The notes beneath the pieces are model-generated. The model saw only the letters and a list, made by a program, of their open reading frames with translations. It made no database searches and had not been told where the DNA came from. A stretch of 64,000 nt of DNA from Terriglobia bacterium (GTDB lineage: Bacteria > Acidobacteriota > Terriglobia > UBA7540). A program made the position numbers and the translations under genes. The stretch covers positions 18,365 through 82,364 of the forward strand of contig JBEKNU010000002.1 of NCBI GenBank assembly GCA_049522495.1. Reading direction: 5' to 3'. Of the stretch, positions 4,720 to 22,806 are shown piece by piece; within the stretch, counting starts at the first letter, position 1, and every line of letters starts with the position of its first letter.

Positions 4720-4823
4720 ATTCTTGTCTCCTTTCGGATTTCTCTCTCTCGGCCTTCCGAAGTTATCAATCGACACTCGTCAATCGAAAATTCCGCGATG
4801 ACCAGATGGCCCGATGGCCCGAT

Positions 4824-6325: not shown

Positions 6326-8191
6326 TTGGTTTTTGGAGCGCACGGTATGATTTTCGAAGGCGGAGCGGCGGGACTGGAGGGACAGGGCCGGGATCAGGAG
6401 TATTTCCTGGCACACGCCTGTCTCGTGCTCGGTTCTGCTTGCGTCCTTACCGGCTATCTCTATCCTGCGGTTCTCGGGAGGCATGTTGCCCTTGGCCGGC
6501 TATTGACTTTCGCCTATTTTGCGTACGGACTGTTAAACCTGGCGGTGGTGCGGTATGGGCGGCACAGCGGTTTGGTATGGCGATTGAGTTCTCACGTCGC
6601 GGACGTGATTCTTGCCTCGTTGATCATCATGATGACCGGGGGAGCGCACAGCCCGTTCCTTCCCCTCTACATTTTTGTGCTCCTCTCGGCGGCAAGCCGG
6701 TGGGGTGTGGCGGGAATTCTTCCCACGGTCTGCGTCGGCATTATTGTTTTGTTGTTAGACGCGGGTCCCCCTTCTGCCTGGTCCGATGGCATGCCGCACT
6801 GGGTGGGGGGAAGCGGGTATTTCAATGCGATTATTGCCCTGCTGGTCTTGTCGGCATATCTCTTCGGCCTACTGATGGAAAGGGAGAAGAAGCAACATGC
6901 TGACGGTGTTATTATCACGCGGCTGGTCAGGAAGACGCTTCATGAATCAAGCTTACGAGTGAATCTCGGGAATATCCTGAAATTTGTGCGCGAACACTTT
7001 CATGCCGATCAGGTGGGGCTGGTCATCCAGGAGATTAAAGGTGAACAGACATTCTTCTGGGAAGCCAGCCGCCCGACACACCCCGGTGAAAACGAGGTCA
7101 AGTCCTGGAGCCTGACCGGGCCGGAACGAGAGGCATCCTTTGCCATGTTGCCGGAAGAAGTCTGCCGGCTGCTCGGACTGCGTCGTATGGGAGGGGATCC
7201 AAAGCTGCGGGCCGCGGCCATGGTGAAGCGGGAGGAAGATTTGCAGAATCCCCTGCGCTCGGCGCTGGCGCAGTTCAGTGCCTTGGATCACTACTATGAC
7301 GAGCTTTACGATATGCGCATTGTGAGCGAGAAGCACGCGCCCTTGGGAGGATTCGGCTCACTCCTTGCCACCTCATTTTCTTTAGAGAAGAGGTGGTTTG
7401 GGCGCCTTACCGTTTACGGCCCCCGGAATCGAATGGACTCCAAGGACAATTCCCGATTCCTGGCGACTTTAGTCCGGGAAGTGGGCCCCGTCATTTTCAA
7501 CAGATTCCTGGTGGGGCGCTTGCGGTCACGGGCTCAATCCCGGGAGCGGTTGCGCTTGGCGCAGGAACTTCACGACGGGGTTATTCAGTCGCTGATCGGG
7601 GTGGAAATGCAAATCGATCTCCTGCGGCGGGCGCAAGAGAGCGCGAATGGCTCGGGCGCCCCGAGCGGGGATTTGAAGCGCTTGCAAGAAGTTCTCCACA
7701 ATGAGATTGCAAATTTTAGAGAGGAAATGCACCGCGTAAGACCGCTGGAGGTTGAGCCTGCCCGCCTTTTGGACTGCCTGGAGTGTACGGTGGAGAGGTT
7801 TCGGCGCGACCTGGGAATTTCCGCCAGTTTTGTCGCCGAAGCGCAAGAAATATCCTTGCAACCTCGGGTGTGCGCCCAGTTGGTGCGGATCGTGCAAGAG
7901 GCGCTGGCGAATGTCCGCAAGCATAGCGGCGCCCACAAAGTGCAAGTGGCCTTTGGCCGGGAGAATGGACATTGGAGATTGTGCGTCGAGGATGATGGCC
8001 GCGGTTTTGGGTTCACAGGCCGTCGATCGTCCCTAGAGCTGGAAAGTGTGCCCGAGTGTCCCTTGGTCATCAAGGAAAGGGTTCGCTCCATCGGGGGCGA
8101 ACTCATGATAGAATCAGTTCCAGGTTCCGGAGCCAAATTAGAAATCTTTGTACCCTTGAGCACTAATGGAAGAACTACCAACTCCAATTGA
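6326..8191 (+). CDS. membrane-bound sensor histidine kinase (HisKA_3 / NarX-type) with multi-TM N-terminus
   Basis: ORF track. Start uncertain (TTG 6326 or ATG 6347). About 5-6 hydrophobic helices in the first 190 aa. H-box LAQELHDGVIQSLIG. HATPase_c blocks QEALANVRKHSGA and VEDDGRGFG. Confidence 0.85.
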   Translation: MVFGAHGMIFEGGAAGLEGQGRDQEYFLAHACLVLGSACVLTGYLYPAVLGRHVALGRLLTFAYFAYGLLNLAVVRYGRHSGLVWRLSSHVADVILASLIIMMTGGAHSPFLPLYIFVLLSAASRWGVAGILPTVCVGIIVLLLDAGPPSAWSDGMPHWVGGSGYFNAIIALLVLSAYLFGLLMEREKKQHADGVIITRLVRKTLHESSLRVNLGNILKFVREHFHADQVGLVIQEIKGEQTFFWEASRPTHPGENEVKSWSLTGPEREASFAMLPEEVCRLLGLRRMGGDPKLRAAAMVKREEDLQNPLRSALAQFSALDHYYDELYDMRIVSEKHAPLGGFGSLLATSFSLEKRWFGRLTVYGPRNRMDSKDNSRFLATLVREVGPVIFNRFLVGRLRSRAQSRERLRLAQELHDGVIQSLIGVEMQIDLLRRAQESANGSGAPSGDLKRLQEVLHNEIANFREEMHRVRPLEVEPARLLDCLECTVERFRRDLGISASFVAEAQEISLQPRVCAQLVRIVQEALANVRKHSGAHKVQVAFGRENGHWRLCVEDDGRGFGFTGRRSSLELESVPECPLVIKERVRSIGGELMIESVPGSGAKLEIFVPLSTNGRTTNSN

Positions 8192-8840
8192 GATTGTCAT
8201 TTCGGATGACCACCCGGTATTTCGGGAGGGTTTGCGGAAGCTGCTTGAAGCTGAGCGGGGGTTCCGCATTGTTGCGGAAGCTTCGGATGGCGAAGAGACG
8301 GTCAAGGTGGTCCGCCAGCACAAACCGAGGATTTTGCTGTTGGATCTTTCCATGCCCAAGGGCACCGGCCTTGAGACCTTGCGCGCGTTGAGCCAGTTGG
8401 GGATTCAAACGCGCACCATCCTCCTGACTGCGTCCATCGAGAAGGAGCAGGTGATTGAGGCGCTGCAGTTGGGAGCGCGCGGCATCGTCTTGAAGCATTC
8501 CACTCTCCAGGTTATCTTGAAGAGTATCCGCTGCGTAAATGATGATCAGTTCTGGATCGGCCAGGATAGCACTTCCGACCTGATCCAGGCCCTGCAACGG
8601 ATGATGCCTCAACACCGTGCTGCGGAGACTACGCGGAACTTCGGACTTACCGCTCGTGAATTGCAGGTCGTCGCGCTCATCGTGGCGGGCTACACCAATA
8701 AGGACCTAGCTCGGAAGCTGGGTATCAGTGAACACACTTCCAAGCACCACTTGACGAACATTTTTGACAAGCTGGGAGTCTCCAACCGCTTGGAACTGGT
8801 GCTCTTTGCCATCAACCACCAGTTGATTAAACAGGACTAG
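8166..8840 (+). CDS. response regulator, NarL/LuxR family (REC + LuxR HTH)
   Basis: ORF track. REC: IVISDDHPVFREGL...ILLLDLSMPKGTG. HTH: LTARELQVVALIVAGYTNKDLARKLGISEHTSKHHLTNIFDKLGV. Overlaps the kinase stop by 26 nt. Confidence 0.9.
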   Translation: MEELPTPIEIVISDDHPVFREGLRKLLEAERGFRIVAEASDGEETVKVVRQHKPRILLLDLSMPKGTGLETLRALSQLGIQTRTILLTASIEKEQVIEALQLGARGIVLKHSTLQVILKSIRCVNDDQFWIGQDSTSDLIQALQRMMPQHRAAETTRNFGLTARELQVVALIVAGYTNKDLARKLGISEHTSKHHLTNIFDKLGVSNRLELVLFAINHQLIKQD

Positions 8841-9020: not shown

Positions 9021-9234
9021 TTGACCGGCCGGGAGCAAAGAATAAACCCGGTTGTCAAAGATCTGCCTTCGCGACAGGGGCCTCAGTCAGGGTTGATGCG
9101 AGCCATGTTGGATACGAGAAGCGATGGGTTCATTCATAGGCATGAGCGTGCCCAACGCTTGCTATTCTATTCAGCACGGATGGAGACTAGTTTGGGCGTC
9201 GCTTCTCGTACGAACTAGACTGGAGGCTTTCAGA

Positions 9235-9696
9235 ATGAGGATTTCTGTAAGTCAAAGGGCGGAGCTGCCTTTCGAGCAGCCAAAGCATCAGAGAAGGGAA
9301 GAGACGTCAGTTTCATCGGTCATTGGCATGCCAACAAAAACCTTACTGCAATCCGTAGGCCGGGCACGACGGTTCGCGCTGCACCTTCGGGTTTACTACC
9401 GGGAACTAAACGGCCGGGAGTGGTTTGAGGGGTGGACAGAAAACATCAGCCGGACGGGCATGCTGTTCACGTGTACCACATCGTTTAGTGTGGATACGCT
9501 TGTGGAGCTGAGGTTACAGCTTGCGGCGGGTGGTGGAAAGGAAGACCCTCCCGCTGAGGTCCTCTGCAAGGGCACAGTTATGCGGGTTGAACGGTTGGGC
9601 GGGTGGGATGCTCCTACCGCTTTGGCCGTGGCAATCCACCCCTATCGCATAACGCGCGGGAATGCACCTTCCAAGGGTTTGATGCCGTTTGCCTGA
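9235..9696 (+). CDS. stand-alone PilZ-domain protein (paralog 1)
   Basis: Frame of ORF 9124..9696. ATG 9235 is preferred (GGAGG 9222-9226, 8-nt spacer). (D/N)xSxxG motif present (TENISRTG). The N-terminal RRxxxR position reads RRFALH. Clear paralog of 15728..16084. Confidence 0.7.
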   Translation: MRISVSQRAELPFEQPKHQRREETSVSSVIGMPTKTLLQSVGRARRFALHLRVYYRELNGREWFEGWTENISRTGMLFTCTTSFSVDTLVELRLQLAAGGGKEDPPAEVLCKGTVMRVERLGGWDAPTALAVAIHPYRITRGNAPSKGLMPFA

Positions 9697-9740
9697 GGAT
9701 CTTGGGGGCTGGGGTTTTGTCAGCTAAAAGGGGAGGTCTG

Positions 9741-10358
9741 ATGCCGATGGAAGAGAGAGGGACGGAACGAATTTCCAGCCTTGTGGAAGCGCGCTGGCAT
9801 GCGCTTTACACGCGCCATCAGCACGAAAGGCTGGTTGCCCACGCTCTGACCGGCAAAGGATTTGATGTCTTCCTGCCCCAGTATCGGGCCATTCATCGCT
9901 GGAAAGACCGCCGGAAGGAACTCGACATGCCGCTTTTCCCCAATTACGTTTTCATTCAGGGTGGGCTTGACCGCATGTTGAACATCCTGACGACACCGGG
10001 CGTTCACTCGCTGGTGGCTTGGGGAGGGCGTCCGGCTGATATTCCCCAAGATGAAATCGATGCGGTGCGCCGGTTGGTTGAAAGCCCTTTGCGAATTCAG
10101 CAACACCCCTTCATCAAGTGCGGAGACCGGGTGCGGATTAAGTCAGGCCCCTTGGAAGGAATCGAAGGGATTCTCGTCCGCAGCAAGAGCGCTTACCGGT
10201 TGGTCCTTTCGGTGGAAATGCTTGCCCGATCTGCCGCCGTGGAGGTTGACGCCAGCATGGTGGAGCGCGTCCGCGGATCCGAACCTGTCCGAAAGGACGA
10301 TTTGAGAATTGACACGGGCGGTCCGGTTGTCGAGCTCGTTGGACCGAGCGGGGCTTAA
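9741..10358 (+). CDS. specialised NusG-family transcription antiterminator (RfaH/UpxY/LoaP-like paralog)
   Basis: Frame of ORF 9603..10358. ATG 9741 follows GGGGAGG. NGN-type block WHALYTRHQHERLVAHALTGKGFDVFLPQY...RRKELDMPLFPNYVFIQG. KOW-type block GDRVRIKSGPLEGIEGILV. About 205 aa. It sits in a polysaccharide locus, not next to secE/rplK. Confidence 0.8.
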   Translation: MPMEERGTERISSLVEARWHALYTRHQHERLVAHALTGKGFDVFLPQYRAIHRWKDRRKELDMPLFPNYVFIQGGLDRMLNILTTPGVHSLVAWGGRPADIPQDEIDAVRRLVESPLRIQQHPFIKCGDRVRIKSGPLEGIEGILVRSKSAYRLVLSVEMLARSAAVEVDASMVERVRGSEPVRKDDLRIDTGGPVVELVGPSGA

Positions 10359-10434: not shown

Positions 10435-11148
10435 ATGAGAATGGATCACAGTGAGCGAGCAGGAATGATGTGGACCTCGAGTGCCAGGACTGGCTTGGTT
10501 CGAATCGTCCTGTCGGCTTGTCTTTTGCTCGCCTCTCATATTGCTCTTGGATCAGATTCCAGCAAAGGGGGAGGGTTCCAGGGCGTCCAGGTCGCCAGTA
10601 TGCTGGGGCCATCGGGGCAGAAAGCAAAGGATCAGCCCAACCCCAGTTCCAAGCAGGCCGACACGGATTACATCATCGGGCCCTCCGACGTCTTGGCGAT
10701 TACTGTTTGGAAGGATGTGGAGCTTACCCGGACCGTTCCGGTGCGCCCGGATGGCAAGATATCACTTCCCCTGATTAATGAGCTGGAAGTGAGCGGTTTA
10801 ACACCCGCCGCGGTGCAGCGGATATTGACACAGAAGCTGAAGGAGTTTATTTCCGATCCGCAAGTTGCGGTGATCGTGCAAGAGGTGAAGAGCCGAACTT
10901 ACAGCGTCCTTGGTAAAGTGGTCAAGCCAGGCGCCTATGAATTGGGAAAACCCACAACGGTTCTGGAGGCCATCGCGGTCGCTGGCGGCTTTTTGGATTT
11001 CGCCAAGCAGAGCAAGATTTACATCATCCGGCCCGTCAGTGGGGGCTCGAACCAGACGCTGCCCTTCGATTACAAGAAGGTTATTAAAGGGCGTAATCCC
11101 GAGCAGAACGTTGAACTCAAGAATGGCGATACGATCGTTGTTCCCTAG
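10435..11148 (+). CDS. short outer-membrane polysaccharide export (OPX, Wza-like) protein: Poly_export + one SLBB domain
   Basis: ORF track. YIIGPSDVLAITVW...VRPDGKISLPLINELEVSGLTPAAVQRIL (PES motif region), then GKVVKPGAYEL...TVLEAIAVAGG (SLBB). Ends at 237 aa right after the SLBB, with no C-terminal amphipathic helix. Confidence 0.85.
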   Translation: MRMDHSERAGMMWTSSARTGLVRIVLSACLLLASHIALGSDSSKGGGFQGVQVASMLGPSGQKAKDQPNPSSKQADTDYIIGPSDVLAITVWKDVELTRTVPVRPDGKISLPLINELEVSGLTPAAVQRILTQKLKEFISDPQVAVIVQEVKSRTYSVLGKVVKPGAYELGKPTTVLEAIAVAGGFLDFAKQSKIYIIRPVSGGSNQTLPFDYKKVIKGRNPEQNVELKNGDTIVVP

Positions 11149-11852: not shown

Positions 11853-13472
11853 TTGGGCGAACAAGATGAAGGCTTGGATGTATTAGTCAACAAGCTTCTA
11901 CGCGTGGCGGTCAAACGCCGCTGGTGGGTGTTTGTGCCCACGGTCGTGGTGGGTTTGGGCGCCTGTGCGGCGACGAGAGTGATCCCCAACCATTACACCT
12001 CAGTGGCCACGATTCTTGTGGCACACCAGCAAGTGCCGGAACGCTACGTTACTCCCAATAGTACCGCTGATCTCCAAGAGCAGCTCATGCTCATGAGAGA
12101 CGAGATTCTTTCGCGCACTCAGTTGCTCAAGATCATCGACGAATTCGGCCTTTACCCCAAGGCGCGGAAGCGTTTGGCGCCTGAGGAGTTGGTGGAAATG
12201 ATACGGAGCGATATTAATCTCGCACCCCCTGAAAAAGCCGGTGAGGCCAAAGACCTTAACTCCTTCAAGATTTCTTACACAGGCAATGATCCGCACATGG
12301 CTCAACGGGTTACCCTCGAGCTCACCACCCTCTTCACCCAAGGATACGAGAAGTCCCGTGAAGAGCAGTCCGCGGGGACGACTAACTTCCTGGACGAGCA
12401 TCTTCAGGCTGCTGCCGAAGATCTGAGGCGACAGGAGGAACTGCAGCGTGATTTTAAGATGAAATACCTCGGTGAACTCCCCGAGCAGCAGCAGGCAAAT
12501 CTGGCAAATCTTGCCGGGTTGCACGCGCAACTTCAGAACACCATGGCCACTATAAGTCATGCCCGCGAGCAACAGGCTTTCAATGAGTCCCTCCTCGCCC
12601 AGTACCAAAATATGGCGGCCGAGGGGATCGCACCGCCGGGGACGGTGGTTGTCAGTCCCACCGAAGCCGCCAGGCAGGAGTTGGCTAAACTCAAGAATGA
12701 AAGAGCCGGTCTCTTGGCGCGTTACACGGACAAATACCCAGACGTGGTGAAACTTGATGAACAAATAAAGGAAGCAGAAGCCACTCTGGCAACAGCGCAA
12801 GCCGCGCCGGCAGCACCGCCGAAGGGGCCCGACCCTGCCACGGGTGAAACAGGCAAGGATATTGCCAAAACGGCCAGTTCCCCTGAGAGAGACGCAGCGA
12901 TCGCCCAACTCCAAAGTCAACTGCAAGCAAACAAATTGGAAGTCCAGGATGGCCTCAAGGAGCAAAAGCAGATTGAATCGCGCATAGCGGAAATCCAAGG
13001 CCGCCTCAACATGACCCCGGTTCGTGAGGAACAGCTTGCGGCTATCCTGCGCGGCTATGACTTGTCAAAGAAAAACTACGACGACTTGCAAAGCAAGAAA
13101 ACGCAATCGGAGTTGGCAACCAGCTTGGAAATACGCCAACAGGGCTCCAAATTCACCGTCATCGACCCCCCCAACCTGCCCGTGAAGCCCTCCGGTTTGG
13201 ACCACATGAAAATCAGCTTGGGCGGTTTGGGGGCGGGCTTGGCACTGGGCGTGGCCGTGGTTTTCCTGCTCGAGGCCAAAGATCACTCGCTGATTGATGA
13301 AAAGGATCTGAGCCGTTTATTTTCCTTCCCCTTGATGGTGGGCATGCCGGCCCTGGTCACTAAAGCCGAAGGCCGCAGGCGTTCGCGCCTACGAATGGTA
13401 GAATGGTTTGTGGGGGCTGCCTTGTGCATGCTGGTTTGCGCGACGGAATTCTACGTTTACCGGCGGGGGTAG
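11853..13472 (+). CDS. polysaccharide co-polymerase / chain-length determinant (Wzz/GumC/EpsF-like, PCP-2b type)
   Basis: ORF track. GGAGG 8 nt upstream of the TTG. N-terminal TM (WWVFVPTVVVGLGACAA), a long coiled-coil periplasmic region, and a C-terminal TM (LGGLGAGLALGVAVVFLL). Confidence 0.85.
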   Translation: MGEQDEGLDVLVNKLLRVAVKRRWWVFVPTVVVGLGACAATRVIPNHYTSVATILVAHQQVPERYVTPNSTADLQEQLMLMRDEILSRTQLLKIIDEFGLYPKARKRLAPEELVEMIRSDINLAPPEKAGEAKDLNSFKISYTGNDPHMAQRVTLELTTLFTQGYEKSREEQSAGTTNFLDEHLQAAAEDLRRQEELQRDFKMKYLGELPEQQQANLANLAGLHAQLQNTMATISHAREQQAFNESLLAQYQNMAAEGIAPPGTVVVSPTEAARQELAKLKNERAGLLARYTDKYPDVVKLDEQIKEAEATLATAQAAPAAPPKGPDPATGETGKDIAKTASSPERDAAIAQLQSQLQANKLEVQDGLKEQKQIESRIAEIQGRLNMTPVREEQLAAILRGYDLSKKNYDDLQSKKTQSELATSLEIRQQGSKFTVIDPPNLPVKPSGLDHMKISLGGLGAGLALGVAVVFLLEAKDHSLIDEKDLSRLFSFPLMVGMPALVTKAEGRRRSRLRMVEWFVGAALCMLVCATEFYVYRRG

Positions 13473-13532: not shown

Positions 13533-14366
13533 TTGCCGAACCGCTTTTTCAAGCCCGAGACCGAGCACGACATGATGCCCTCCAGCACGGCGGATGAGTT
13601 TCTGAAGGGATTGGAAAGGGCGGAAATCAATCTGCCTTTTCCGGCTGAAACGAGCCCGGTTCCCCCGGATTCCCGCATTGTCGTGCACAGCGATCCGCGG
13701 AGTGCCGGTGCAGACAGGTTCAGACTGGTGCAAATGCGCCTCAAGCACTTGCAGGCTTCGAAAAAGCTAAAAACCCTCCTGGTTACCAGCCCTTTGCCAG
13801 GCGACGGCAAGAGCACCGTGGCCTTAAATCTGGCCACAGCGATGTCCGAAAAGGGAAAGCGGCCCGTGCTCTTGCTGGAGGCCGACGTTTATCGACCATC
13901 TCTGTCAATAAAACTGGGTCTCAAGCCGTGGCCGGGGCTAACGGAGTGTCTTGAAAGCAAGAATGACCCGATGCTGGCAATCCGGCGCATCGATCCCCTG
14001 GGCTTTTACTTTTTGCCCGCAGGGCACCCGACGGAGGGGGGCAGCTTCCTACAGTTTGCCTTCACCTCGCACCTCGTGGAGGGTCTTGCGGCTACCTTCA
14101 AATGGATTCTCATCGATGCACCGCCTACGACCCCCATGGCTGAAATCCTTGCATTGAAGGCACAGTCTGATGCCACATTGCTGGTAGCTCGCGCCGGAAA
14201 GACTCCGCGAGAGGCTATTGAGGAAGCAACCCAGAATATCGGGCGCGATCACATCCTTGGAATCATACTTAACGGCGTAGAAGGGATCGACGCTTACTAC
14301 TCCAAATACTATGGATACGTACAGCCTAAACATCGCGCCAAGCAGTCTTGGTTCAGCCTAAAATAG
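13533..14366 (+). CDS. cytoplasmic BY-kinase (CpsD/CapB/EpsG-like tyrosine autokinase)
   Basis: ORF track. Walker A LLVTSPLPGDGKSTVALNLA, Walker A' LLLEADVYRPS, Walker B ILIDAPP. Tyr-rich tail IDAYYSKYYGYV. Confidence 0.85.
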   Translation: MPNRFFKPETEHDMMPSSTADEFLKGLERAEINLPFPAETSPVPPDSRIVVHSDPRSAGADRFRLVQMRLKHLQASKKLKTLLVTSPLPGDGKSTVALNLATAMSEKGKRPVLLLEADVYRPSLSIKLGLKPWPGLTECLESKNDPMLAIRRIDPLGFYFLPAGHPTEGGSFLQFAFTSHLVEGLAATFKWILIDAPPTTPMAEILALKAQSDATLLVARAGKTPREAIEEATQNIGRDHILGIILNGVEGIDAYYSKYYGYVQPKHRAKQSWFSLK

Positions 14367-14974: not shown

Positions 14975-15451
14975 ATGGAAAGTATGTTCGCAAAGCCAGC
15001 CTCCGTGCTCTGGTGGGTCATAACCCTTGCATGGGCTATACAGATTTTCTTCCTTTCCACTCATGGGTTCAGTCCCCATTACACGGGACGTTGGTTGGCC
15101 CTGGCGCTGGACCTAATGCACCTCCACGTCTCGCTGCGCACCTTCGGGCTTCTGCATGCGGCTCTCCGGAAACTGGCGCACTTGACCGAGTATGGCATTT
15201 TCGCCCTTCTTCTGTACGGTATTCCTAATGGAAAGGGCTTGGAATCCTGGCGATCGAGCCGTGCGGCGATTTGCATTGCGCTCGCCGCCGCTTATTCCCT
15301 CTCGGATGAGTTTCATCAGCTATTTGTTCCTGGACGACATGCCTCGCTTCGCGATTGCGGATTGGACACGCTCGGCGCATCACTGGCCTTGCTCGTGCCC
15401 TATGCCCGGGAACGGATGTCTTTCCTGAGATTCCCCGGCAAGCTCTCCTAA
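14975..15451 (+). CDS. VanZ-like family membrane protein
   Basis: ORF track. Four hydrophobic helices. KLAHLTEYGIFALLL and SDEFHQLFVPGRHASLRDCGLDTLG match the VanZ-like signature. Confidence 0.75.
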   Translation: MESMFAKPASVLWWVITLAWAIQIFFLSTHGFSPHYTGRWLALALDLMHLHVSLRTFGLLHAALRKLAHLTEYGIFALLLYGIPNGKGLESWRSSRAAICIALAAAYSLSDEFHQLFVPGRHASLRDCGLDTLGASLALLVPYARERMSFLRFPGKLS

Positions 15452-15727: not shown

Positions 15728-16084
15728 ATGACTGACCCTCGCCTCGAACTGCTCCCCAAAGGCACCATACGGAAAGAACGATTTCCGCTCAGCATTCCTG
15801 TGCGCTACCGCCAGCCACACGAGTCGACCTGGTTCGAGGGCAGGACTGAGAACATCAGTTGCTCGGGAGTACTGTTGCTTGCGGAAGCCTCCTTAGAGCC
15901 AAAGATCACGATTGAACTGAGATTTGAGCTTCCCATTGCCGTCCTCGGGGAAGCACGCGGCGAGGTTGTCTGTAAGGGAACGGTGGTTCGCACCCAAGAG
16001 AATCCCATGGCAGGTATTCCGACAGCCCTGGCGGTGGCGATACGAAGTTATCGCATGACCCGGGGAGGGCAACAAGTTCATTAG
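15728..16084 (+). CDS. stand-alone PilZ-domain protein (paralog 2)
   Basis: ORF track. TENISCSG = (D/N)xSxxG. The RRxxxR position reads ERFPLS. Shares WFEG.TENIS, V.CKGTV.R and PTALAVAI..YR.TRG with PilZ1. Confidence 0.7.
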   Translation: MTDPRLELLPKGTIRKERFPLSIPVRYRQPHESTWFEGRTENISCSGVLLLAEASLEPKITIELRFELPIAVLGEARGEVVCKGTVVRTQENPMAGIPTALAVAIRSYRMTRGGQQVH

Positions 16085-16170
16085 TGCATTTTGGGGAAGG
16101 GATTGACACCTGAACCCGGAACTGGAGTTCAGGAGGAGTGATATGATGGTAGTTGTCTTGGAGAGGTAAT

Positions 16171-17493
16171 TTGAAGAAACTCTTTCCCCTCGCCATGTTC
16201 GCGATCTTGTTGCCCTTAGGTCTTATGGCGCAAACAGCATCGCCCACGGCAGGGGCCGCATCCCAACCAGCAGTTTTTGGCGTTGGATTGCAGACACCGT
16301 TACGGTTCGCGGGAGAGTCCATTCCCACGAACCAAGTTTCGCTGAGCTTGGGCGCCTCGACCTTCTACGACGACAACGTCCTCCAAAGGAACTCAGGCCG
16401 GATCAGAGATGAAGGGGCCAATTTTAGTTCTGATCTAAAGTTTCTAAGGCAGACCGAGAACGTGACATTCAGTTTTGATTACCAGCCTGAGTTTGCCTTA
16501 TACAACAATACTAACCAACTGGACCGGCTCAACCATCTTGGTACTCTGAACCTGACTTACCGAATGAGTTCACGCTTTTATATCGGAATGTATGACACTT
16601 TCAGTTATCTAAACGGCGCCTTTCAATCCCAGCAGATTCTGTCGGGGCTTAGTTCGCCCACCGCCCTGAATCAATCGATCATCCCGTACACGGTCAGAAC
16701 GCTGGCGAATACGAGTGGGTTGAATCTGAGCTTTGTGAAGAGCCATAGGACGTCTCTTACCCTTTCGGGTAATTACGACGAGCGCCGATTCGGAAGCGCC
16801 CAGATCGTGGGTCAGCCGTTGTATAACACCCGGGAAATGAGTGGCGGCTTTCAGTATCAATACCGTATTACCGAGCATACAAGTTTCGGCCTTGCTTTGC
16901 TCCATCAAGATTCCACGTACGATGGGGGCACGGGCTTCGGCGGCAACCGGCGTTTTCAAAACGAAAGCGCGTTCTTCTCCATCCAGTCACGAGTGTCCCC
17001 CACCGTCACCCTGGCGTTCTTCGGCGGGCCGCAATACGCTAGTATCTTTGGCCAGTCTGCGAGCGGGGGTGCGGTGAGACAATTGCAAGGCGCCGGTGGA
17101 GGAAGTATTACCAAAGAGGTTAAGAAGACGGCCTTGGATCTGTCTGTCCAAAGGGCGGCATCCGACAGCGGGGGCCTTTACACCATGGTGGAAAGCACCT
17201 CGGCCACACTGGGAGTGCGCCGGCGCCTGGTTGGACGCTGGGAAGCTGGACTGCACGGCGGCGCTACGAGAGTGGAAACCTCGCTCTTGCACCTTGGCAG
17301 TGGAAAGACGGATGCCTTATTGGGGGGATTTGATCTCACGCGCCCCTTCTCGAATGGCGCGGCCTTCCACGTATCCTACCAAACCTTTCACCAATTGTCC
17401 TCTGGGAGCGTACCCGTTGCGGCGAATTTCGACCGCGACCTCGTAACGGTGGGCATTGATTTCCGACTTAAAGCAATCCCGCTTGGTCATTAA
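16171..17493 (+). CDS. putative integral outer-membrane beta-barrel protein (candidate porin partner of the short OPX)
   Basis: Frame of ORF 16153..17493. TTG 16171 follows GGAGAGG, giving the signal peptide MKKLFPLAMFAILLPLGLMAQ. The sequence is rich in alternating hydrophobic/polar stretches with Y/F/G/N/S/T (FSFDYQPEFALY, LNLTYRMSSRFYIGMYDTFSY, AFHVSYQTF). Confidence 0.55.
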   Translation: MKKLFPLAMFAILLPLGLMAQTASPTAGAASQPAVFGVGLQTPLRFAGESIPTNQVSLSLGASTFYDDNVLQRNSGRIRDEGANFSSDLKFLRQTENVTFSFDYQPEFALYNNTNQLDRLNHLGTLNLTYRMSSRFYIGMYDTFSYLNGAFQSQQILSGLSSPTALNQSIIPYTVRTLANTSGLNLSFVKSHRTSLTLSGNYDERRFGSAQIVGQPLYNTREMSGGFQYQYRITEHTSFGLALLHQDSTYDGGTGFGGNRRFQNESAFFSIQSRVSPTVTLAFFGGPQYASIFGQSASGGAVRQLQGAGGGSITKEVKKTALDLSVQRAASDSGGLYTMVESTSATLGVRRRLVGRWEAGLHGGATRVETSLLHLGSGKTDALLGGFDLTRPFSNGAAFHVSYQTFHQLSSGSVPVAANFDRDLVTVGIDFRLKAIPLGH

Positions 17494-17833: not shown

Positions 17834-19006
17834 ATGATCAGCGAAATCTTTGCTCCAAAAAGGTCGCGGAAGATGACCCTGGGAGCTGTGTCTCCATTGA
17901 ATCCACTTGACAGGGAAGAGGGCCAGAGCGAGGATACCGGGTTTTCGCTGGTGTCGGAAGAGCTTTTCCGGAAGGTGTTGTCGATTGAGCGGAAAAGAAG
18001 TGAGCGCTCTCGGCAACGGTTTGTGCTAATGCTTGTGCATGTCGGCAAGGTTATTGAGACCGACCGCAGCGGGATGGTTCTTGAAGGAATATCGGAGGCG
18101 CTTTCCAGCTCCGCGCGCGAGACGGATTTGCATGGCTGGTATCAGAACGGTTCGGTGGTGGGTGTTATCTGCACAGAAATCGGCAAGGGGGACCTGACCT
18201 CCATCCTCAGCGCTCTGCATTCGAGGGTGGGCGCAGCCTTACGGAACAGGCTGGGTCTGGAGCAGATGAATGCCATCCATATCTCCTTCCATGTGTTTCC
18301 AGACGATTTGGACCTCAACAAGGGCGGCCGTTCCACGGACATCAGTCTCTATCCCGATTTACTGCCAAAAAACATCGCATCCACAACCTCCCGGGTAGTC
18401 AAAAGAGCCATAGATCTGACCGGGAGCCTCGCGGCGCTTATCCTGCTCTCCCCGCTCTATGCTGTCATTGCTGTCGCAATTAAGCTGACGTCGAAAGGCC
18501 CGATCCTGTTCAAGCAGGATCGCGTGGGAGAGTATGGCATTCGCTTTTCCTGCCTGAAGTTCCGATCAATGTATTACAAGAACGATGCGAAGATTCACCA
18601 GGAATACGTCCGAGGGCTGATTTCCGGGAAGCACGATGGCAAGGGGAATGTTTACAAGATAAAGGACGACCCCCGGGTTACACCTGTCGGGAAATTTCTG
18701 CGGAAGACCAGTCTGGACGAACTACCTCAGTTCTTCAACGTGCTCAAGGGCGAGATGTCTCTGGTGGGGCCCCGTCCCCCTATCCCTTACGAGGTTGAGG
18801 CCTATGAAGTATGGCACCGGCGGCGCTTCCTCGAGGCGAAGCCGGGGATCACGGGACTGTGGCAGGTGGAGGGACGGAGCAGGACCAAGTTTGACGAAAT
18901 GGTCCGTCTGGACCTCCGCTACGCAAAAACCTGGTCGCCTTGGTTGGACATCAAAATCCTCCTGCGAACGCCCGCTGCGGTGTTTAGGGGAGACGGCGCG
19001 TATTGA
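17834..19006 (+). CDS. priming phosphoglycosyl transferase (Bac_transf / WbaP-EpsB type) with N-terminal degenerate GGDEF-like domain
   Basis: ORF track. C-terminal half: KRAIDLTGSLAALILLSPLYAVIAVAIKLTSKGPILFKQDRVG...DDPRVTPVGKFLRKTSLDELPQFFNVLKGEMSLVGPRP...PGITGLWQV. N-terminal ~170 aa aligns by eye to a GGDEF fold, with RETD (18116-18127) five residues before QNGSV (18143-18157) at the GG(D/E)EF position. Confidence 0.85.
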   Translation: MISEIFAPKRSRKMTLGAVSPLNPLDREEGQSEDTGFSLVSEELFRKVLSIERKRSERSRQRFVLMLVHVGKVIETDRSGMVLEGISEALSSSARETDLHGWYQNGSVVGVICTEIGKGDLTSILSALHSRVGAALRNRLGLEQMNAIHISFHVFPDDLDLNKGGRSTDISLYPDLLPKNIASTTSRVVKRAIDLTGSLAALILLSPLYAVIAVAIKLTSKGPILFKQDRVGEYGIRFSCLKFRSMYYKNDAKIHQEYVRGLISGKHDGKGNVYKIKDDPRVTPVGKFLRKTSLDELPQFFNVLKGEMSLVGPRPPIPYEVEAYEVWHRRRFLEAKPGITGLWQVEGRSRTKFDEMVRLDLRYAKTWSPWLDIKILLRTPAAVFRGDGAY

Positions 19007-19046: not shown

Positions 19047-20048
19047 ATGATTCGGATCGGTATTATCGGTTACGGTTATTGGGGCCCACAAATCGTCAGA
19101 AACTTCTGTTCCCTGGAGGACTGTGAAGTTGGCGTGGTGTGCGACAAGAGCGCGGCGGCGCTGCGCCGCGCCAAACAAGCGCACCACAGCATGCAAGTAT
19201 CTTCCGACATCGGCGAAACCCTATCGGCCCCGAACCTCGACGCCATAGCAGTTATCACGCCCGTTTGGACGCATTTCGAATTGGCCAAAGCTGCGCTGGA
19301 AAATGGCAAGCACGTGTTTGTGGAAAAGCCCTTTACCTCCACGGCCGCGCAAGCCGAGGAACTGATCGAACTGGCCGAGAAAAAGAATCTGCGAATTATG
19401 GTGGACCACACGTTCCTGTTCACCGGCGCCGTGAAGAAGATCCGGGAACTGGTTGATGAAGGAGCGCTGGGAAAGCTTTTTTACTATGACTCGACCCGCG
19501 TGAATTTAGGCCTTTTCCAACACGACGTCAATGTGATTTGGGATTTGGCCCCCCACGACCTCTCCATAATGGATTATTTAATCAAGGACAAGGTGGAGGC
19601 GATCGTTGCGACGGGCGAAAGACACTTGAATGGCCACGAGGATATAGCATTTATCACGGTTTATTTCGAGAACAACATCATCGCTCACATCAATGTCAAT
19701 TGGCTATCGCCCGTTAAGGTTCGGACCACCCTGATCGGCGGAGAGAAAAAAATGGTGGTGTGGAACGATCTGGAAGCGGACGAGAAAGTGAAGATTTACG
19801 ACAAGGGAGTGAAGATCACCAGCCGCGAGGGTGTCTACGACCTGTTGGTCAGTTACCGCTCCGGCGACATGTGGGCGCCCCGGGTGGAGCAGACCGAGGC
19901 CTTGAAGGCGGAGTGCAGCTACTTCATCGATTGCATCAAGAATAGCAAAACCCCCTTCAACGACGGGCATGCTGGACTGAAGGTGGTGAAAATGCTGGAA
20001 GCTGCGACCGAATCGATCCGGGAAAGGGGGAAGATCGTCCGCATATGA
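19047..20048 (+). CDS. Gfo/Idh/MocA-family NAD-dependent sugar oxidoreductase (WbpB-like)
   Basis: Frame of ORF 18795..20048. ATG 19047 gives MIRIGIIGYGYWGPQIVRNF (Rossmann). GKHVFVEKPFTSTAAQAEELIELAEKKNLRIMVDHTFLF. Confidence 0.85.
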   Translation: MIRIGIIGYGYWGPQIVRNFCSLEDCEVGVVCDKSAAALRRAKQAHHSMQVSSDIGETLSAPNLDAIAVITPVWTHFELAKAALENGKHVFVEKPFTSTAAQAEELIELAEKKNLRIMVDHTFLFTGAVKKIRELVDEGALGKLFYYDSTRVNLGLFQHDVNVIWDLAPHDLSIMDYLIKDKVEAIVATGERHLNGHEDIAFITVYFENNIIAHINVNWLSPVKVRTTLIGGEKKMVVWNDLEADEKVKIYDKGVKITSREGVYDLLVSYRSGDMWAPRVEQTEALKAECSYFIDCIKNSKTPFNDGHAGLKVVKMLEAATESIRERGKIVRI

Positions 20049-20524
20049 GCGAATTCCTGAGCATCGCCCCCGATGTCAAGCTGGGAAAAGACGTCAAGCT
20101 TTCCAAGTTCATTAACCTCTATGGATGTGAGATCGGCGACGGCACAAAGATTGGCGCGTTTGTGGAGGTGCAGAAGAATGCCAAAATCGGGCAAAGATGC
20201 AAGATCTCCAGCCACACTTTTATCTGTGAGGGCGTAACCATCGAAGACAATGTCTTCATTGGGCACAGCGTGACGTTCATCAACGACGCGTATCCGCGGG
20301 CCGCCAATCCCGACGGCGGGCTGCAGACGGAGGCCGACTGGAAAGTGGAAAAAACCCTGGTGAAAAAAGGTGCTTCGATCGGTTCAGGGAGCACGATTCT
20401 CTCTAAAGTGACAGTCGGCGAAAATGCCATCGTGGGGGCAGGGAGTGTGGTTACAAAGGATGTTCCTGCCAACGTGATCGTGGCGGGGAACCCCGCCAAA
20501 TTCTTGAGAAAACTGGACAAATAA
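20045..20524 (+). CDS. left-handed beta-helix (hexapeptide) N-acetyltransferase (WbpD-like)
   Basis: ORF track. ATGA overlap with the upstream stop. Hexapeptide repeats IGDGTKIGAFVEVQKNAKIGQRCKISSHTFI...IGSGSTILSKVTVGENAIVGAGSVV. Confidence 0.85.
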   Translation: MSEFLSIAPDVKLGKDVKLSKFINLYGCEIGDGTKIGAFVEVQKNAKIGQRCKISSHTFICEGVTIEDNVFIGHSVTFINDAYPRAANPDGGLQTEADWKVEKTLVKKGASIGSGSTILSKVTVGENAIVGAGSVVTKDVPANVIVAGNPAKFLRKLDK

Positions 20525-20543
20525 AAGACGGAGGAAACAGATC

Positions 20544-21776
20544 GTGGAAACTAATCGAATTCCTTTTCTTGACCTCGTGACTCCCCATCGGGAGCTCAAA
20601 GATGAGTTGGCGGCGGTGTTTTCACATGTTCTCGATACGGCGGGCTTTATTGGCGGCCCCATGGTGGAAGATTTTGAAAAATCTTTCGCCAAGTTCTGCG
20701 ACGCTCAGCATTGTGTCGGTGTGAGCAGCGGCACCGATGCCTTGCGGTTTGCACTGATGGCCGCCGGGGTTGGGTCCGACGATGCCGTCATCACCGTCCC
20801 GAACACCTTTATCGCCACGAGCGAAGCCATTTCTCAATGCGGCGCCCTCCCGCGATTTGTGGATGTCGACGAGCGCACCTACAACATGGATGTGAAGAAG
20901 CTGGGCGATTACCTTGCTTTGGAATGCTCTCGAAACGACTCCAACGGCAAGCTCGTGGACAAGCAGACCGCCAGGGCAGTAAAGGCCATCGTCCCGGTGC
21001 ATCTTTACGGGCAAATGGCGGATATGGACCCCCTCCTTGAATTGGCAGAAAAGTACAATCTGATTATCATTGAGGATGCTTGCCAAGCGCACGGAGCCGA
21101 GTACTTTTCGCGCAAAGATAACCGTTGGAAGAAAGCGGGCTCGGTGGGAAGGGCGGCGGCTTTCAGCTTTTACCCCGGGAAGAACCTGGGAGCTTGTGGG
21201 GAAGCCGGAGCCGTTACCACCAACGATGCGGACCTTGCCAAGAGAGTCCGCCAATTGCGTGATCACGGCCAGGCCCAAAAGTATTACCACGACCTGGAAG
21301 GATACAATGGCCGATTGGATGCGATCCAGGCCGGCATCTTGCGCGTCAAGCTCCGGCATCTCGGCCAGTGGAATGAAAGGCGCCGGGAATGTGCGTCGCG
21401 ATATCAGAAGCTCTTAGGTGGGGCCTCCGAGGCCATTCGGCTTCCCTTCGAACCCTCTTGGTCTAAAGCGGCTTTCCACCTCTACGTCGTGCAGGTTCAA
21501 CACCGGGAACAACTTCAGAAACAACTCGGCGAGGCTGGTATCGGGACGGGAATTCATTATCCCATTCCCCTCCACCTGCAAAAAGCCTATAAGCATCTTG
21601 GCTACCACGAGGGTGATTTCCCGGTATCCGAAAAGGCTGCTTTGCAAATTCTGTCTCTGCCCATGTTTCCGGGGCTCACCTCGGCGCAGCAGGAGCGAAT
21701 TGCCCAGCAAGTGTTGGATTCCGTTAGCGGAGAGACTGTCGCCAATTCCCAACTCTCTCTCGGGGCGCGGTCATGA
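20544..21776 (+). CDS. DegT/DnrJ/EryC1/StrS-family PLP-dependent sugar aminotransferase (WbpE-like)
   Basis: ORF track (GTG start). GVSSGTDALRFALMAAGV, IIEDACQAHGA, SFYPGKNLGACGEAGAV (PLP-lysine region). Confidence 0.9.
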   Translation: METNRIPFLDLVTPHRELKDELAAVFSHVLDTAGFIGGPMVEDFEKSFAKFCDAQHCVGVSSGTDALRFALMAAGVGSDDAVITVPNTFIATSEAISQCGALPRFVDVDERTYNMDVKKLGDYLALECSRNDSNGKLVDKQTARAVKAIVPVHLYGQMADMDPLLELAEKYNLIIIEDACQAHGAEYFSRKDNRWKKAGSVGRAAAFSFYPGKNLGACGEAGAVTTNDADLAKRVRQLRDHGQAQKYYHDLEGYNGRLDAIQAGILRVKLRHLGQWNERRRECASRYQKLLGGASEAIRLPFEPSWSKAAFHLYVVQVQHREQLQKQLGEAGIGTGIHYPIPLHLQKAYKHLGYHEGDFPVSEKAALQILSLPMFPGLTSAQQERIAQQVLDSVSGETVANSQLSLGARS

Positions 21777-22041
21777 CCTCCATCATGGGGTTATAACGAA
21801 ACCAGCTCTGCTCCTTATTGGGAAAGGATGCCCTTCCAAAGTCAATAAATGCCGGTTTCCAAATCGCGTTAAACAGGCACTGGGGTGTGTTTGCCGGTGA
21901 GCGTAGTTCGTGGGATGATTATCCCGTCCGGGAGTGATCGCCGGATGTCGTTTGCAGTGCAGACAACAGTCCACTGCTACGAGGAACCACGGTGTCGTTG
22001 GTCGCCAAACTGTAACTCTTATTGGAGGAGGCTCAAAAGCC

Positions 22042-22806
22042 GTGACAAAGGACAGCAAAGTTGTGGTTGCTGGGCTTGGAGAGGTGGGGAAGCCGCTCTT
22101 CGAGCTCGTTTCCAAGCACTATGATGCCGTAGGGGTGGATATCTCGCCGGTCGAGCGGGCGGAGCAGGTCGAAGTCCTGCACGTCTGCTTTCCGTTCGGG
22201 ATTAAGGACTTTGTGGGTGAGACCGTGCGGTATATCGAGCTTTTCAAACCCAGTTTGACGATCATCAACAGCACCGTAGCGGTCGGGACAACACGAAAGA
22301 TCGCCCTGCGAGCGCGTGCCGCCGTTGTGAACAGCCCGGTGCGTGGCAAACACGCTCGCATGCTCGAGGAGCTCCTTATCTACAGAAAATTCGTGGGAGC
22401 CATGGATCCCGCAACTGGCGAGTTGGCTGCCAAACATTTCGAGTCCATCGGCATGAAAACCAAGGTTCTCTCGTCTCCGGAGGCGACCGAGCTGGCGAAG
22501 CTAACGGAAACGACTTACTTCGGTGTGTTGATCGCCTGGGCGCAGGAGGTGGAGAGATATTGTGACCAAGCGGGCCAGGATTTCGGCGAAATCAGCTCGT
22601 TCTGGGAAGAAATAAAATACTTGCCACCCGTTAAGTTCTTTCCGGGAATTATCGGTGGTCATTGCGTCATGCCCAACATCAAGATCCTAAGCGAGTTTGA
22701 CCATTCAGTGATCCGGGAGGCGATTCAGGCTTCCAACAGCATGAAGATCGAGCGCGAGGCGTCCAGGAAGGTTGTTGACAACGTTGCGGCGACCACGAGA
22801 GGATAG
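22042..22806 (+). CDS. short nucleotide-sugar dehydrogenase-like protein (NAD-binding + central domain only)
   Basis: Frame of ORF 21934..22806. GTG 22042 follows GGAGGAGG. VVVAGLGEVGKPL (Rossmann), ATELAKLTETTYFGVLIAWAQEVERYC and GGHCVMPNI resemble the UDP-Glc/GDP-Man dehydrogenase central domain and catalytic Cys. About 254 aa, so a C-terminal nucleotide-sugar-binding domain seems to be missing. Confidence 0.5.
   Translation: MTKDSKVVVAGLGEVGKPLFELVSKHYDAVGVDISPVERAEQVEVLHVCFPFGIKDFVGETVRYIELFKPSLTIINSTVAVGTTRKIALRARAAVVNSPVRGKHARMLEELLIYRKFVGAMDPATGELAAKHFESIGMKTKVLSSPEATELAKLTETTYFGVLIAWAQEVERYCDQAGQDFGEISSFWEEIKYLPPVKFFPGIIGGHCVMPNIKILSEFDHSVIREAIQASNSMKIEREASRKVVDNVAATTRG

Follow-up and report, generated by a model that had tools for sequence, protein, structure and literature searches.

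We analyzed a stretch of 64,000 nucleotides from contig JBEKNU010000002.1 of a Terriglobia bacterium, in the following referred to as the window. It carries a co-directional exopolysaccharide (EPS) cluster, and within this cluster lies a gene for a phosphoglycosyl transferase (PGT), whose N-terminal part, the N-domain (a GGDEF-like domain at aa 39-157 which, with its flanking segments, makes up residues 1-189), is the subject of this study. The open reading frame (ORF) opens with ATG, 6 nt downstream of GAGGAGAG, and its product is recorded at NCBI as MGA3322955.1, 'MAG: sugar transferase [Terriglobia bacterium]', from a metagenome-assembled genome (MAG). The gene is divided as follows:

17834..19006, + strand: PGT gene, a fusion of a degenerate GGDEF-like domain with a monotopic phosphoglycosyl transferase (monoPGT), 390 aa
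17834..17947, + strand: N-terminal leader, aa 1-38, variable in the alignment and predicted to be disordered, with a predicted local distance difference test score (pLDDT) <50 at residues 1-36
17948..18304, + strand: degenerate GGDEF-like domain, aa 39-157, with the element order α0-β1-α1'-α2-β2-β3-α3-β4
18305..18400, + strand: linker, aa 158-189, variable and of low model confidence
18401..18493, + strand: re-entrant membrane helix of the monoPGT core, aa 190-220, with S206-P207, aligned with WbaP
18401..18985, + strand: Bac_transf catalytic domain, aa 190-384 (Pfam)
18716-18721, + strand: D295-E296 dyad within Bac_transf; the PRP motif follows at aa 313-315

The only Pfam domain found in this protein is PF02397 (Bac_transf), which matches with an E-value of 2.6e-68 and a score of 229.5 bits (cut-off 27). 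The NCBIfam model for EPS polyprenyl glycosylphosphotransferases, TIGR03025, likewise matches above its threshold (303 versus 295.6 bits), and to the models for large PGTs the protein aligns over their C-terminal ~200 positions only. An alignment with the WbaP structures of Salmonella displays the motifs SLDELPQ, which contains D295-E296, and GPRP. The protein has neither the further transmembrane (TM) segments of the large monoPGT (WbaP/WcaJ) N-terminus nor a match to PF13727; its sole hydrophobic segment, at aa ~195-215, contains LLS206P207L. Because there is just this one segment, we place the N-domain (residues 1-189) in the cytoplasm. With its re-entrant helix, catalytic dyad and PRP motif, the protein is apparently an intact small monotopic PGT, and we predict that it primes undecaprenyl phosphate for an exopolysaccharide of the Wzx/Wzy type.

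Origin of the N-domain

Queried as a single sequence, the N-domain is inconspicuous: Pfam and NCBIfam scans of aa 1-180 returned no domain, and a phmmer search of the full-length protein against the PDB returned PGTs only. Profiles built from its homologs point to GGDEF domains, the family of the diguanylate cyclases. A HMMER profile of 34 homologs ranked GGDEF proteins among its top PDB matches (SiaD, 7e6g, E 0.041) and also matched a phytochrome-diguanylate cyclase across aa 49-175 (E 0.78). With 75 orthologs from genomes, the first ranks were taken by SiaD (E 0.0073), GcbC (E 0.027) and PDB entry 6khu (E 0.056). When 175 family domains were compared with five GGDEF sequences from the PDB in hhalign, the two sets matched with 96.1% probability (E 2.9e-9, aa 39-135). 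Taken individually, 28 of the 75 orthologous N-domains match the Pfam family PF00990 (GGDEF; best E 4.5e-5), while every other Pfam family is matched by four of them at most.

Structure prediction leads to the same family. In an AlphaFold model computed for aa 1-185, the core at aa 40-160 is predicted with confidence (pLDDT ~85-95), and its order of helices and strands, H-E-H-H-E-E-H-H-E, agrees with a helix α0 followed by a palm-like β-α-α-β-β-α-β core. A trimmed model, computed with 114 sequences, reaches a pLDDT of 85.6 and a predicted template modeling score (pTM) of 0.80. Run with either model against the PDB, Foldseek gave nothing but GGDEF domains among its top 50 matches (best E 6.7e-6 and 2.7e-5). 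The trimmed model superposes on its top 50 matches with query TM-scores (TMq) of 0.56-0.76, most closely on 6khu (TMq 0.76, target TM-score TMt 0.74, root-mean-square deviation 2.3 Å). In a reverse check, a hidden Markov model (HMM) of canonical GGDEF domains, run against all ORFs of the window and of 80 homologous loci (see below), picked out N-domain/PGT ORFs only.

We accept the GGDEF fold because four lines of evidence agree, namely profile-sequence, profile-profile, per-member Pfam and structure comparison; the N-domain is almost certainly a degenerate GGDEF homolog. A reading of the window made from its sequence alone (the sequence-only reading) had arrived at a GGDEF alignment by eye, which HMMER, hhalign (at the above 96.1%), the individual Pfam matches and AlphaFold/Foldseek now reproduce.

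Lost and retained sites of the GGDEF domain

The HMMER alignments with SiaD and GcbC and the hhalign alignment share one register, in which the tetrapeptide RETD falls on the RxxD motif of the inhibitory site (I-site), where active cyclases contact cyclic di-GMP (c-di-GMP). For PleD, we use the residue numbers and roles of the PleD literature. The conservation figures refer to 175 domains, gathered from matches in a library of representative sequences and from a first homolog search. In this register, the following features can be placed:

17987..18010, + strand: ERKRSERS, aa 52-59, end of helix α0 (alignment)
within helix α0 (FRKVLSIERKRSERSRQR): R55, aligned with PleD R313, the secondary I-site position; 98% conserved (hhalign)
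18038..18046, + strand: H69-V70-G71, where β1 of PleD has the metal-binding D-x-D, D327/D329 (hhalign)
18116..18127, + strand: RETD, aa 95-98, the RxxD I-site motif in the α2-β2 loop, with R95/D98 on PleD R359/D362
18134..18157, + strand: GWY-QNGSV, aa 101-108, the hairpin of the former active site (A-site), counterpart of PleD RY-GGEEF
18224..18226, + strand: R131 in helix α3, candidate third I-site residue; K/R in 100% of the domains, 36 residues past R95

Little is left of the catalytic machinery. Strand β1 reads FVLMLVHVG, and the six residues that follow it in PleD, the FK.iND..GH segment with the guanine-binding N335, are missing. The position of PleD D344 is occupied by G80 and variable in the family. 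In the hairpin, GWY-QNGSV-VGVI aligns with PleD RY-GGEEF-VVI; GWY is 90-100% conserved, and positions 104-108, the former GG(D/E)EF motif, vary among the 175 domains. Strand β4, ISFHVFP (S151 89%, P156 99%), lies opposite the tvSiGv strand of PleD. The domain stops after it, at aa ~157, and is followed by the linker and the membrane helix, without α4 and β5; K442 and R446 of PleD, in the phosphate-binding helix α4, have no counterpart. Judged by these features, i.e. the lost GG(D/E)EF motif, the deleted N335 segment, the variable D344 position and the absent α4 and β5, the N-domain is not a cyclase.

The I-site has fared differently from the catalytic residues. The RETD motif is nearly invariant (R95 99%, E/D96 97%, T97 96%, D98 99%), and so is the end of α0 (E52 99%, R53 90%, K/R54 96%, R55 98%, E57 90%, R58 97%, S59 92%). 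Further near-invariant positions lie in and after the hairpin: G101 (100%), W102 (99%), Y103 (90%), G110 (98%), T114 (92%) and E115 (92%). A lead on the third I-site residue comes from K/R131, which is found at +36 from R95, a count that includes a one-residue hairpin insertion, and compares with the R402 of PelD at +35; this is a match in sequence spacing rather than in observed geometry. Thus, the residues matching the c-di-GMP contacts of real cyclases' inhibitory site are among the most strongly conserved, even though catalysis has been lost, and the I-site, with R95, D98, R55 and K/R131, appears to be kept under very strong purifying selection. Since a dead domain has no catalysis to feed back on, a conserved I-site points to a role as a receptor.

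These results bear out most of what the sequence-only reading had claimed for the domain, and qualify some of it. Its coordinates for RETD (18116-18127, aa 95-98) and QNGSV (18143-18157, aa 104-108) are exact. It was right that the domain should be catalytically dead and that the RxxD I-site is kept; R95 and D98 are 99% conserved among the 175 domains, and our alignments show GG(D/E)EF, the residues that bind guanine and the phosphate-binding helix at the C-terminus to be lost. The distance between RxxD and the hairpin, which it gave as exactly five residues, becomes five or six, owing to a one-residue insertion that hhalign sets at N105. That the metal-binding Asp residues are lost holds for the PGT of the window (H69, G71) and not for most of its relatives, in which position 69, the first metal-binding position, is D in 46%, E in 22% and H in 20%, i.e. 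acidic in 68%.

Distribution and domain architectures

The family is large. In a library of 1.84 billion cluster representatives (clusters at 50% identity), an HMM search yielded 2,401 proteins at E<=1e-3, at least 1,584 at E<=1e-10 and 291 at E<=1e-30; the first of these tiers is possibly inflated, because the profile took in the start of the membrane helix. Their public names are 'sugar transferase' or 'glycosyltransferase' only. A genome scan with one genome per species yielded 319 loci, of which the best 80 were used for locus counts. These 80 all belong to Acidobacteriota (Terriglobia, Acidobacteriaceae, Bryobacterales, Solibacteraceae, Sulfotelmatobacter, Edaphobacter). The sequence-only reading had proposed to survey the fusion across this phylum, and in 74 of the 80 loci the N-domain and a complete Bac_transf domain indeed share a single reading frame.

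Besides the simple fusion, we found tandem and standalone forms. Three proteins carry two N-domains ahead of the PGT: in P0052 and P0055, both copies have the ERKR..RS and R(E/M)TD motifs, and in P0058 the ERKR..RS helix motif of the first copy is partly eroded. One such tandem gene (L085:3704-5221) has the usual neighbors, including the downstream trio of GFO, acetyltransferase and DegT genes described below. The tandem arrangement may be the intramolecular equivalent of a domain dimer. Two standalone forms are genuine. The first, L082 (4001-5100), with 203 aa, retains a remnant of the hydrophobic PGT helix without the catalytic domain, lies directly upstream of a gene for a 118-aa PilZ protein and has orthologs in P0005 and P0012. 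The second, L083 (4001-4516), with 171 aa, is found on four contigs and adjoins a FemAB/Acetyltransf_6 gene. Fused, in tandem or alone, the N-domain appears to behave as a portable regulatory unit.

Other entries that suggest unusual architectures did not hold up. Many of the 140-220 aa 'N-domain only' proteins in the databases are not separate genes, but frameshifted gene calls from error-prone MAG assemblies. Split genes are seen at L081 (4001-5210) and throughout L084, and tails in the alignment betray them in P0014, P0016, P0025 and P0047; they look like frameshifts because the DegT, GFO and Bac_transf neighbors in L084 are split, too. Such entries could mislead a census of domain architectures. 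Likewise, P0102 (905 aa), in which aspartokinase/ACT, N-domain and PGT appear joined, most likely stems from read-through in gene calling. Within the window, a second ORF of 390 aa (60577-61749) was considered as a paralog of the PGT; it is an unrelated gene of the HMGL-like/homocitrate-synthase type.

Genomic neighborhood

The genes surrounding the PGT gene, and the order in which they stand, are conserved in related loci. In the window, they are:

6326-8191: histidine kinase
8166-8840: LuxR-type response regulator
9124-9696, + strand: PilZ gene 1 (PF07238, E 3.6e-6), with homologs in related loci
9603-10358: UpxY/RfaH-type antiterminator
10435-11148: Wza
11853-13472: Wzz, a polysaccharide co-polymerase
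13533-14366: bacterial tyrosine kinase (BY-kinase)-like ATPase
14975-15451: VanZ
15728-16084, + strand: PilZ gene 2, 118 aa, two genes upstream of the PGT gene (PF07238, E 2e-9)
16153-17493: PEP-CTERM-type outer-membrane protein-like ORF
19047-21776, + strand: GFO oxidoreductase, hexapeptide acetyltransferase and DegT aminotransferase, directly 3' of the PGT gene
29280-30854: Wzx
further downstream of this trio: family 4 glycosyltransferase (GT4), Rml genes, methyltransferases, family 2 glycosyltransferases (GT2s), a UDP-sugar dehydrogenase and an epimerase

The trio downstream of the PGT gene, which probably makes an acetamido-sugar donor, regularly accompanies it: among the 80 loci, the GFO gene is present in 76, the hexapeptide transferase in 72 and the DegT gene in 70. 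Its adjoining the PGT gene in 70-76 of 80 loci suggests that the family primes with an acetamido or amino sugar. The antiterminator, Wza, Wzz and BY-kinase genes are each found in 50-58 loci. The two PilZ genes that the sequence-only reading had noted at 9124-9696 and 15728-16084 are confirmed by their PF07238 matches. Of the 80 loci, 22 have PilZ genes in the 8 kb upstream, in many cases two of them, and PilZ gene 2 keeps its position in L001, L003, L005, L007, L022 and L023. No EAL or HD-GYP domain appeared in Pfam scans of the larger ORFs of the window, in which no search was aimed at either.

Some further observations concern the cluster and its surroundings. The ORF at 41054-42712 has a weak match to VimE-like proteins (UDP-2,3-diacetamido-2,3-dideoxy-glucuronate deacetylase). 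Sub-threshold matches to PEP-CTERM/XrtA-associated families occur in the cluster, i.e. to tyrosine autokinase TIGR03018 and outer-membrane protein TIGR03016; an exosortase was not identified in the window. The ORF at 21934-22806 (+ strand, ~240-290 aa) resembles UDP-glucose/GDP-mannose dehydrogenases, of which it has the Rossmann motif and the central domain only, without the C-terminal UDP-binding domain; the window also has a full-length gene for UDP-glucose dehydrogenase (UGDH), at 38367-39812. The EPS cluster is preceded by α-L-fucosidase and DUF2961 genes at 3343-5936 (- strand). Downstream of the EPS genes lies a hybrid cluster of a nonribosomal peptide synthetase (NRPS) and polyketide synthases (PKS), with three ORFs at 45220-60306 (+ strand). 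The NRPS ORF encodes 2,186 aa with the order A-C-A-MT-PCP (adenylation, condensation, adenylation, methyltransferase, peptidyl carrier protein), and the PKS ORFs encode 1,540 aa (KS-AT-KR-ACP, i.e. ketosynthase, acyltransferase, ketoreductase, acyl carrier protein) and 1,304 aa with a terminal thioesterase. The HMGL-like gene at 60577-61749 mentioned above comes after them.

Relation to known receptors and priming enzymes

The sequence-only reading had likened the domain to PelD-type receptors. In PelD, a degenerate GGDEF domain binds c-di-GMP with its residues R367, D370 and R402 (PMC2170427; PMC8461298), and Lee et al. described the equivalent of R402 as poorly conserved in PleD-like proteins (PMC2170427). 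Both PelD and the PGT have a catalytically dead GGDEF domain with an RxxD motif, which is cytoplasmic, tethered to the membrane and part of an exopolysaccharide machine. Moreover, the essential R402 lies ~35 residues past the Arg of RxxD, where the N-domain has the invariant K/R131 at +36. In other respects they differ: PelD is a separate subunit with four TM helices, a GAF domain and a full-length GGDEF domain, and it recruits PelF in a synthase-dependent pathway, whereas the domain described here sits in cis on the priming enzyme of a Wzx/Wzy pathway. With no GAF domain, a single re-entrant helix and a Wza/Wzz/BY-kinase/Wzx-type cluster rather than a pel cluster, the PGT is not a PelD ortholog. 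By fold, PelD (4dmz_B) is found at rank 47 of the matches to the trimmed model (E 3.3e-3). The comparison is apt as far as a dead GGDEF domain with RxxD is concerned; a closer equivalence to PelD is tentative, since PelD is a distant fold match and K/R131 is a candidate third residue of the site.

Among the cyclases, PleD, WspR, SiaD, GcbC and DgcZ resemble the N-domain in their fold, in the 'ER..R' end of helix α0 and in having RxxD ahead of the β2-β3 hairpin; in SiaD, for instance, the motif reads REYDLCGRW, compared to RETDLHGWY in the PGT. These active enzymes differ from the N-domain, which is devoid of GG(D/E)EF, the guanine- and phosphate-binding residues, the six residues past β1 and the C-terminal third of the domain. 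More similar in this regard is 6khu, a compact degenerate GGDEF-like 'DGC protein' (diguanylate cyclase) from Thermotoga maritima, which is short and likewise lacks GG(D/E)EF and the FK.iND insertion. It is not fused to a PGT, however, and has RVPLD instead of RxxD; our literature search found no paper on this entry.

Degenerate GGDEF domains are a recurrent theme in polysaccharide systems, with PssE and YdaK reportedly being further c-di-GMP receptors of this kind. The GIL domain of BcsE is comparable to the N-domain as a GGDEF-like module reduced to the I-site, acting in the post-translational control of a polysaccharide (PMC8461298). Receptors of the BcsE type are separate proteins that act on processive synthases, though, whereas the PGT is a lipid-carrier priming enzyme.

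On the side of the priming enzymes, there is precedent for control through accessory parts. Among the large monoPGTs, WbaP requires dimerization, and its accessory domain of unknown function (DUF) has been proposed to sense uridine nucleotides (PMC10942596); EpsZ is activated by the response regulator EpsW, which promotes its dimerization (PMC12802240). WbaP, EpsZ and CapM resemble the PGT as initiating enzymes that are controlled via an accessory cytoplasmic domain or partner, probably by dimerization. The signals are different ones, i.e. UMP sensing by the DUF of WbaP, the phosphorylated receiver EpsW for EpsZ and Tyr phosphorylation for CapM, and none of the three involves c-di-GMP or a GGDEF-like domain. 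Furthermore, large PGTs have a four-TM bundle and the PF13727 DUF, and the PGT has neither. A functional parallel in c-di-GMP signaling comes from the Caulobacter holdfast pathway, which is undecaprenyl-linked and of the Wzx/Wzy type. Its cytoplasmic glycosyltransferase HfsJ is directly bound and activated by c-di-GMP (PMC11481889); in contrast to the PGT, HfsJ is not a priming enzyme and has no GGDEF-like domain.

Function of the N-domain

On balance, we lean towards the view that the N-domain is a c-di-GMP receptor that regulates the PGT, so that c-di-GMP may have direct control over the step that commits a Wzx/Wzy pathway. Some caution is in order, because E96, T97 and GWY are conserved beyond the RxxD motif and because K/R131 is a candidate only for the third residue of the site. 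How such a receptor might work is suggested by the known cyclases. In PleD and WspR, intercalated c-di-GMP dimers connect two GGDEF domains, the primary I-site of the first with the R313/R198 position of the second, R313 of PleD acting together with the primary site in cross-linking the two. In the PGT, c-di-GMP would bind the I-site of the N-domain at R95/D98, with K/R131, and would probably do so in the form of an intercalated dimer, which is how PleD, WspR and PelD bind it. The signal would most likely reach the catalytic domain by way of two N-domains that the ligand cross-links, through the primary site of one and R55/R58 of the other, favoring a dimer at the membrane in which the PGT is active. 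The lipid carrier would be primed at high c-di-GMP only, and the two PilZ proteins of the cluster would act at other steps. In an alternative version, c-di-GMP would relieve an auto-inhibition. The direction of the effect and the dimerization mechanism are the least certain parts of this explanation, and we assume activation rather than inhibition solely because c-di-GMP generally promotes matrix synthesis. In its complete form, the scheme would make the PGT the first second-messenger-gated priming enzyme: c-di-GMP would bridge R95/D98/K/R131 to R55/R58 of another N-domain, dimerize the small PGT and switch on the priming of undecaprenyl phosphate (Und-P), and together with the two PilZ proteins this would amount to multi-point control. 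We put this full scheme forward tentatively, as a possibility rather than an expectation.

Several observations weigh against a c-di-GMP-gated enzyme or the homology on which it builds. The N-domain of the PGT itself matches PF00990 with an E-value of 0.22 and 11.7 bits, below the gathering cut-off of 23.8. The position of PleD R390 is taken by A127 in the hhalign alignment and is not conserved, K/R131 being located one helical turn further. The conservation of E96 and T97 (96-97%) and of GWY (90-100%) exceeds what a generic RxxD site needs; it could reflect a structural role, or another ligand or partner. With position 69 acidic in 68% of the family, some members may have a residual A-site function. 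The PilZ neighbors are confined mainly to closer relatives (22 of 80 loci), and the canonical-GGDEF HMM detected no canonical diguanylate cyclase, either in the window or, over a range of 8 kb, at any of the 80 loci.

Some of these observations invite other explanations, which we judged against the same body of evidence. That the GGDEF likeness is a chance similarity of a generic α/β fold, with RETD as a coincidental tetrapeptide, would fit the empty single-sequence scans of residues 1-180 and the E-value of 0.22 of the window's own domain. Four independent lines agree in one register, however, and the canonical GGDEF HMM singles out N-domain ORFs alone in the reverse search; hhalign, the per-member Pfam matches and the fold search effectively refute this explanation, and we regard its probability as close to negligible. 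Of more weight is the idea that the N-domain is a GGDEF relic that serves as a structural, dimerization or docking module without any nucleotide, its R, E and D residues forming salt bridges at an interface. Possible contact partners of such a module are the BY-kinase/Wzz machinery, the PilZ proteins and the PGT core. The conservation pattern, which spans E96, T97, G101-W102-Y103 and the ERKRSERS helix with its alternating charges, would suit an interface no less than a pocket, conservation is lacking at the position of PleD R390, and the EpsW-EpsZ pair shows that a PGT can be controlled by protein contact and dimerization (PMC12802240). Yet the strongest selection falls on both known c-di-GMP contact sites, RxxD and the R313 position, standalone copies of the domain exist outside the PGT, and PilZ genes recur as neighbors, so that we consider a nucleotide-free relic unlikely, if worth keeping in mind.

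Alternatively, the N-domain could sense a different nucleotide; candidates are GTP, (p)ppGpp, a cyclic dinucleotide other than c-di-GMP, and UMP/UDP-sugar as a feedback signal. The acidic first metal position in 68% of the members would be in line with this, as would the uridine nucleotide sensing by the accessory domain of WbaP (PMC10942596), and among the fold matches is a PleD structure (PDB 9g85), PleD having been crystallized with ppGpp as well as with c-di-GMP. The elements for binding GTP, however, are deleted, variable or truncated (N335 segment, D344, GG(D/E)EF, α4), and the conserved residues fall on the I-site rather than the A-site, which leaves another ligand rather improbable. 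For these reasons, the c-di-GMP receptor remains our favored interpretation of the N-domain.

Implications for polysaccharide control in Acidobacteriota

Direct control by c-di-GMP is well known for processive synthases, i.e. those for cellulose, alginate, Pel and PNAG. For Wzx/Wzy pathways, post-translational control was described as poorly understood in a 2025 paper, which noted c-di-GMP control for the synthase-dependent ones (PMC12802240). The sequence-only reading had regarded the fusion as undescribed, and a full-text literature search, the scope of which did not extend to the PNAS 2021 survey of PGT fusions, found no GGDEF-like domain described on a PGT. The novelty is nevertheless a restricted one, as HfsJ and degenerate-GGDEF receptors were known before: what is new is the fusion partner and the control point, and what is already known is the receptor module, from PelD and BcsE.

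The N-domain is invisible to routine annotation, while the family is large and spread across the phylum Acidobacteriota. With its fused, tandem and standalone occurrences, it defines a minimal (~120 aa) GGDEF-derived module, and with sensor and enzyme in one polypeptide of 390 aa, the PGT is a directly testable system. If our interpretation is true, c-di-GMP would act at the most economical point of the pathway, where the lipid carrier, which is scarce, is committed. Acidobacteriota are dominant soil bacteria, genetics in the phylum is scarce, and their exopolysaccharides matter for soil aggregation; under the full scheme of second-messenger-gated priming, the module, which is used across the Acidobacteriota, would be a major and as yet unannotated means for soil bacteria to control the production of their matrix.

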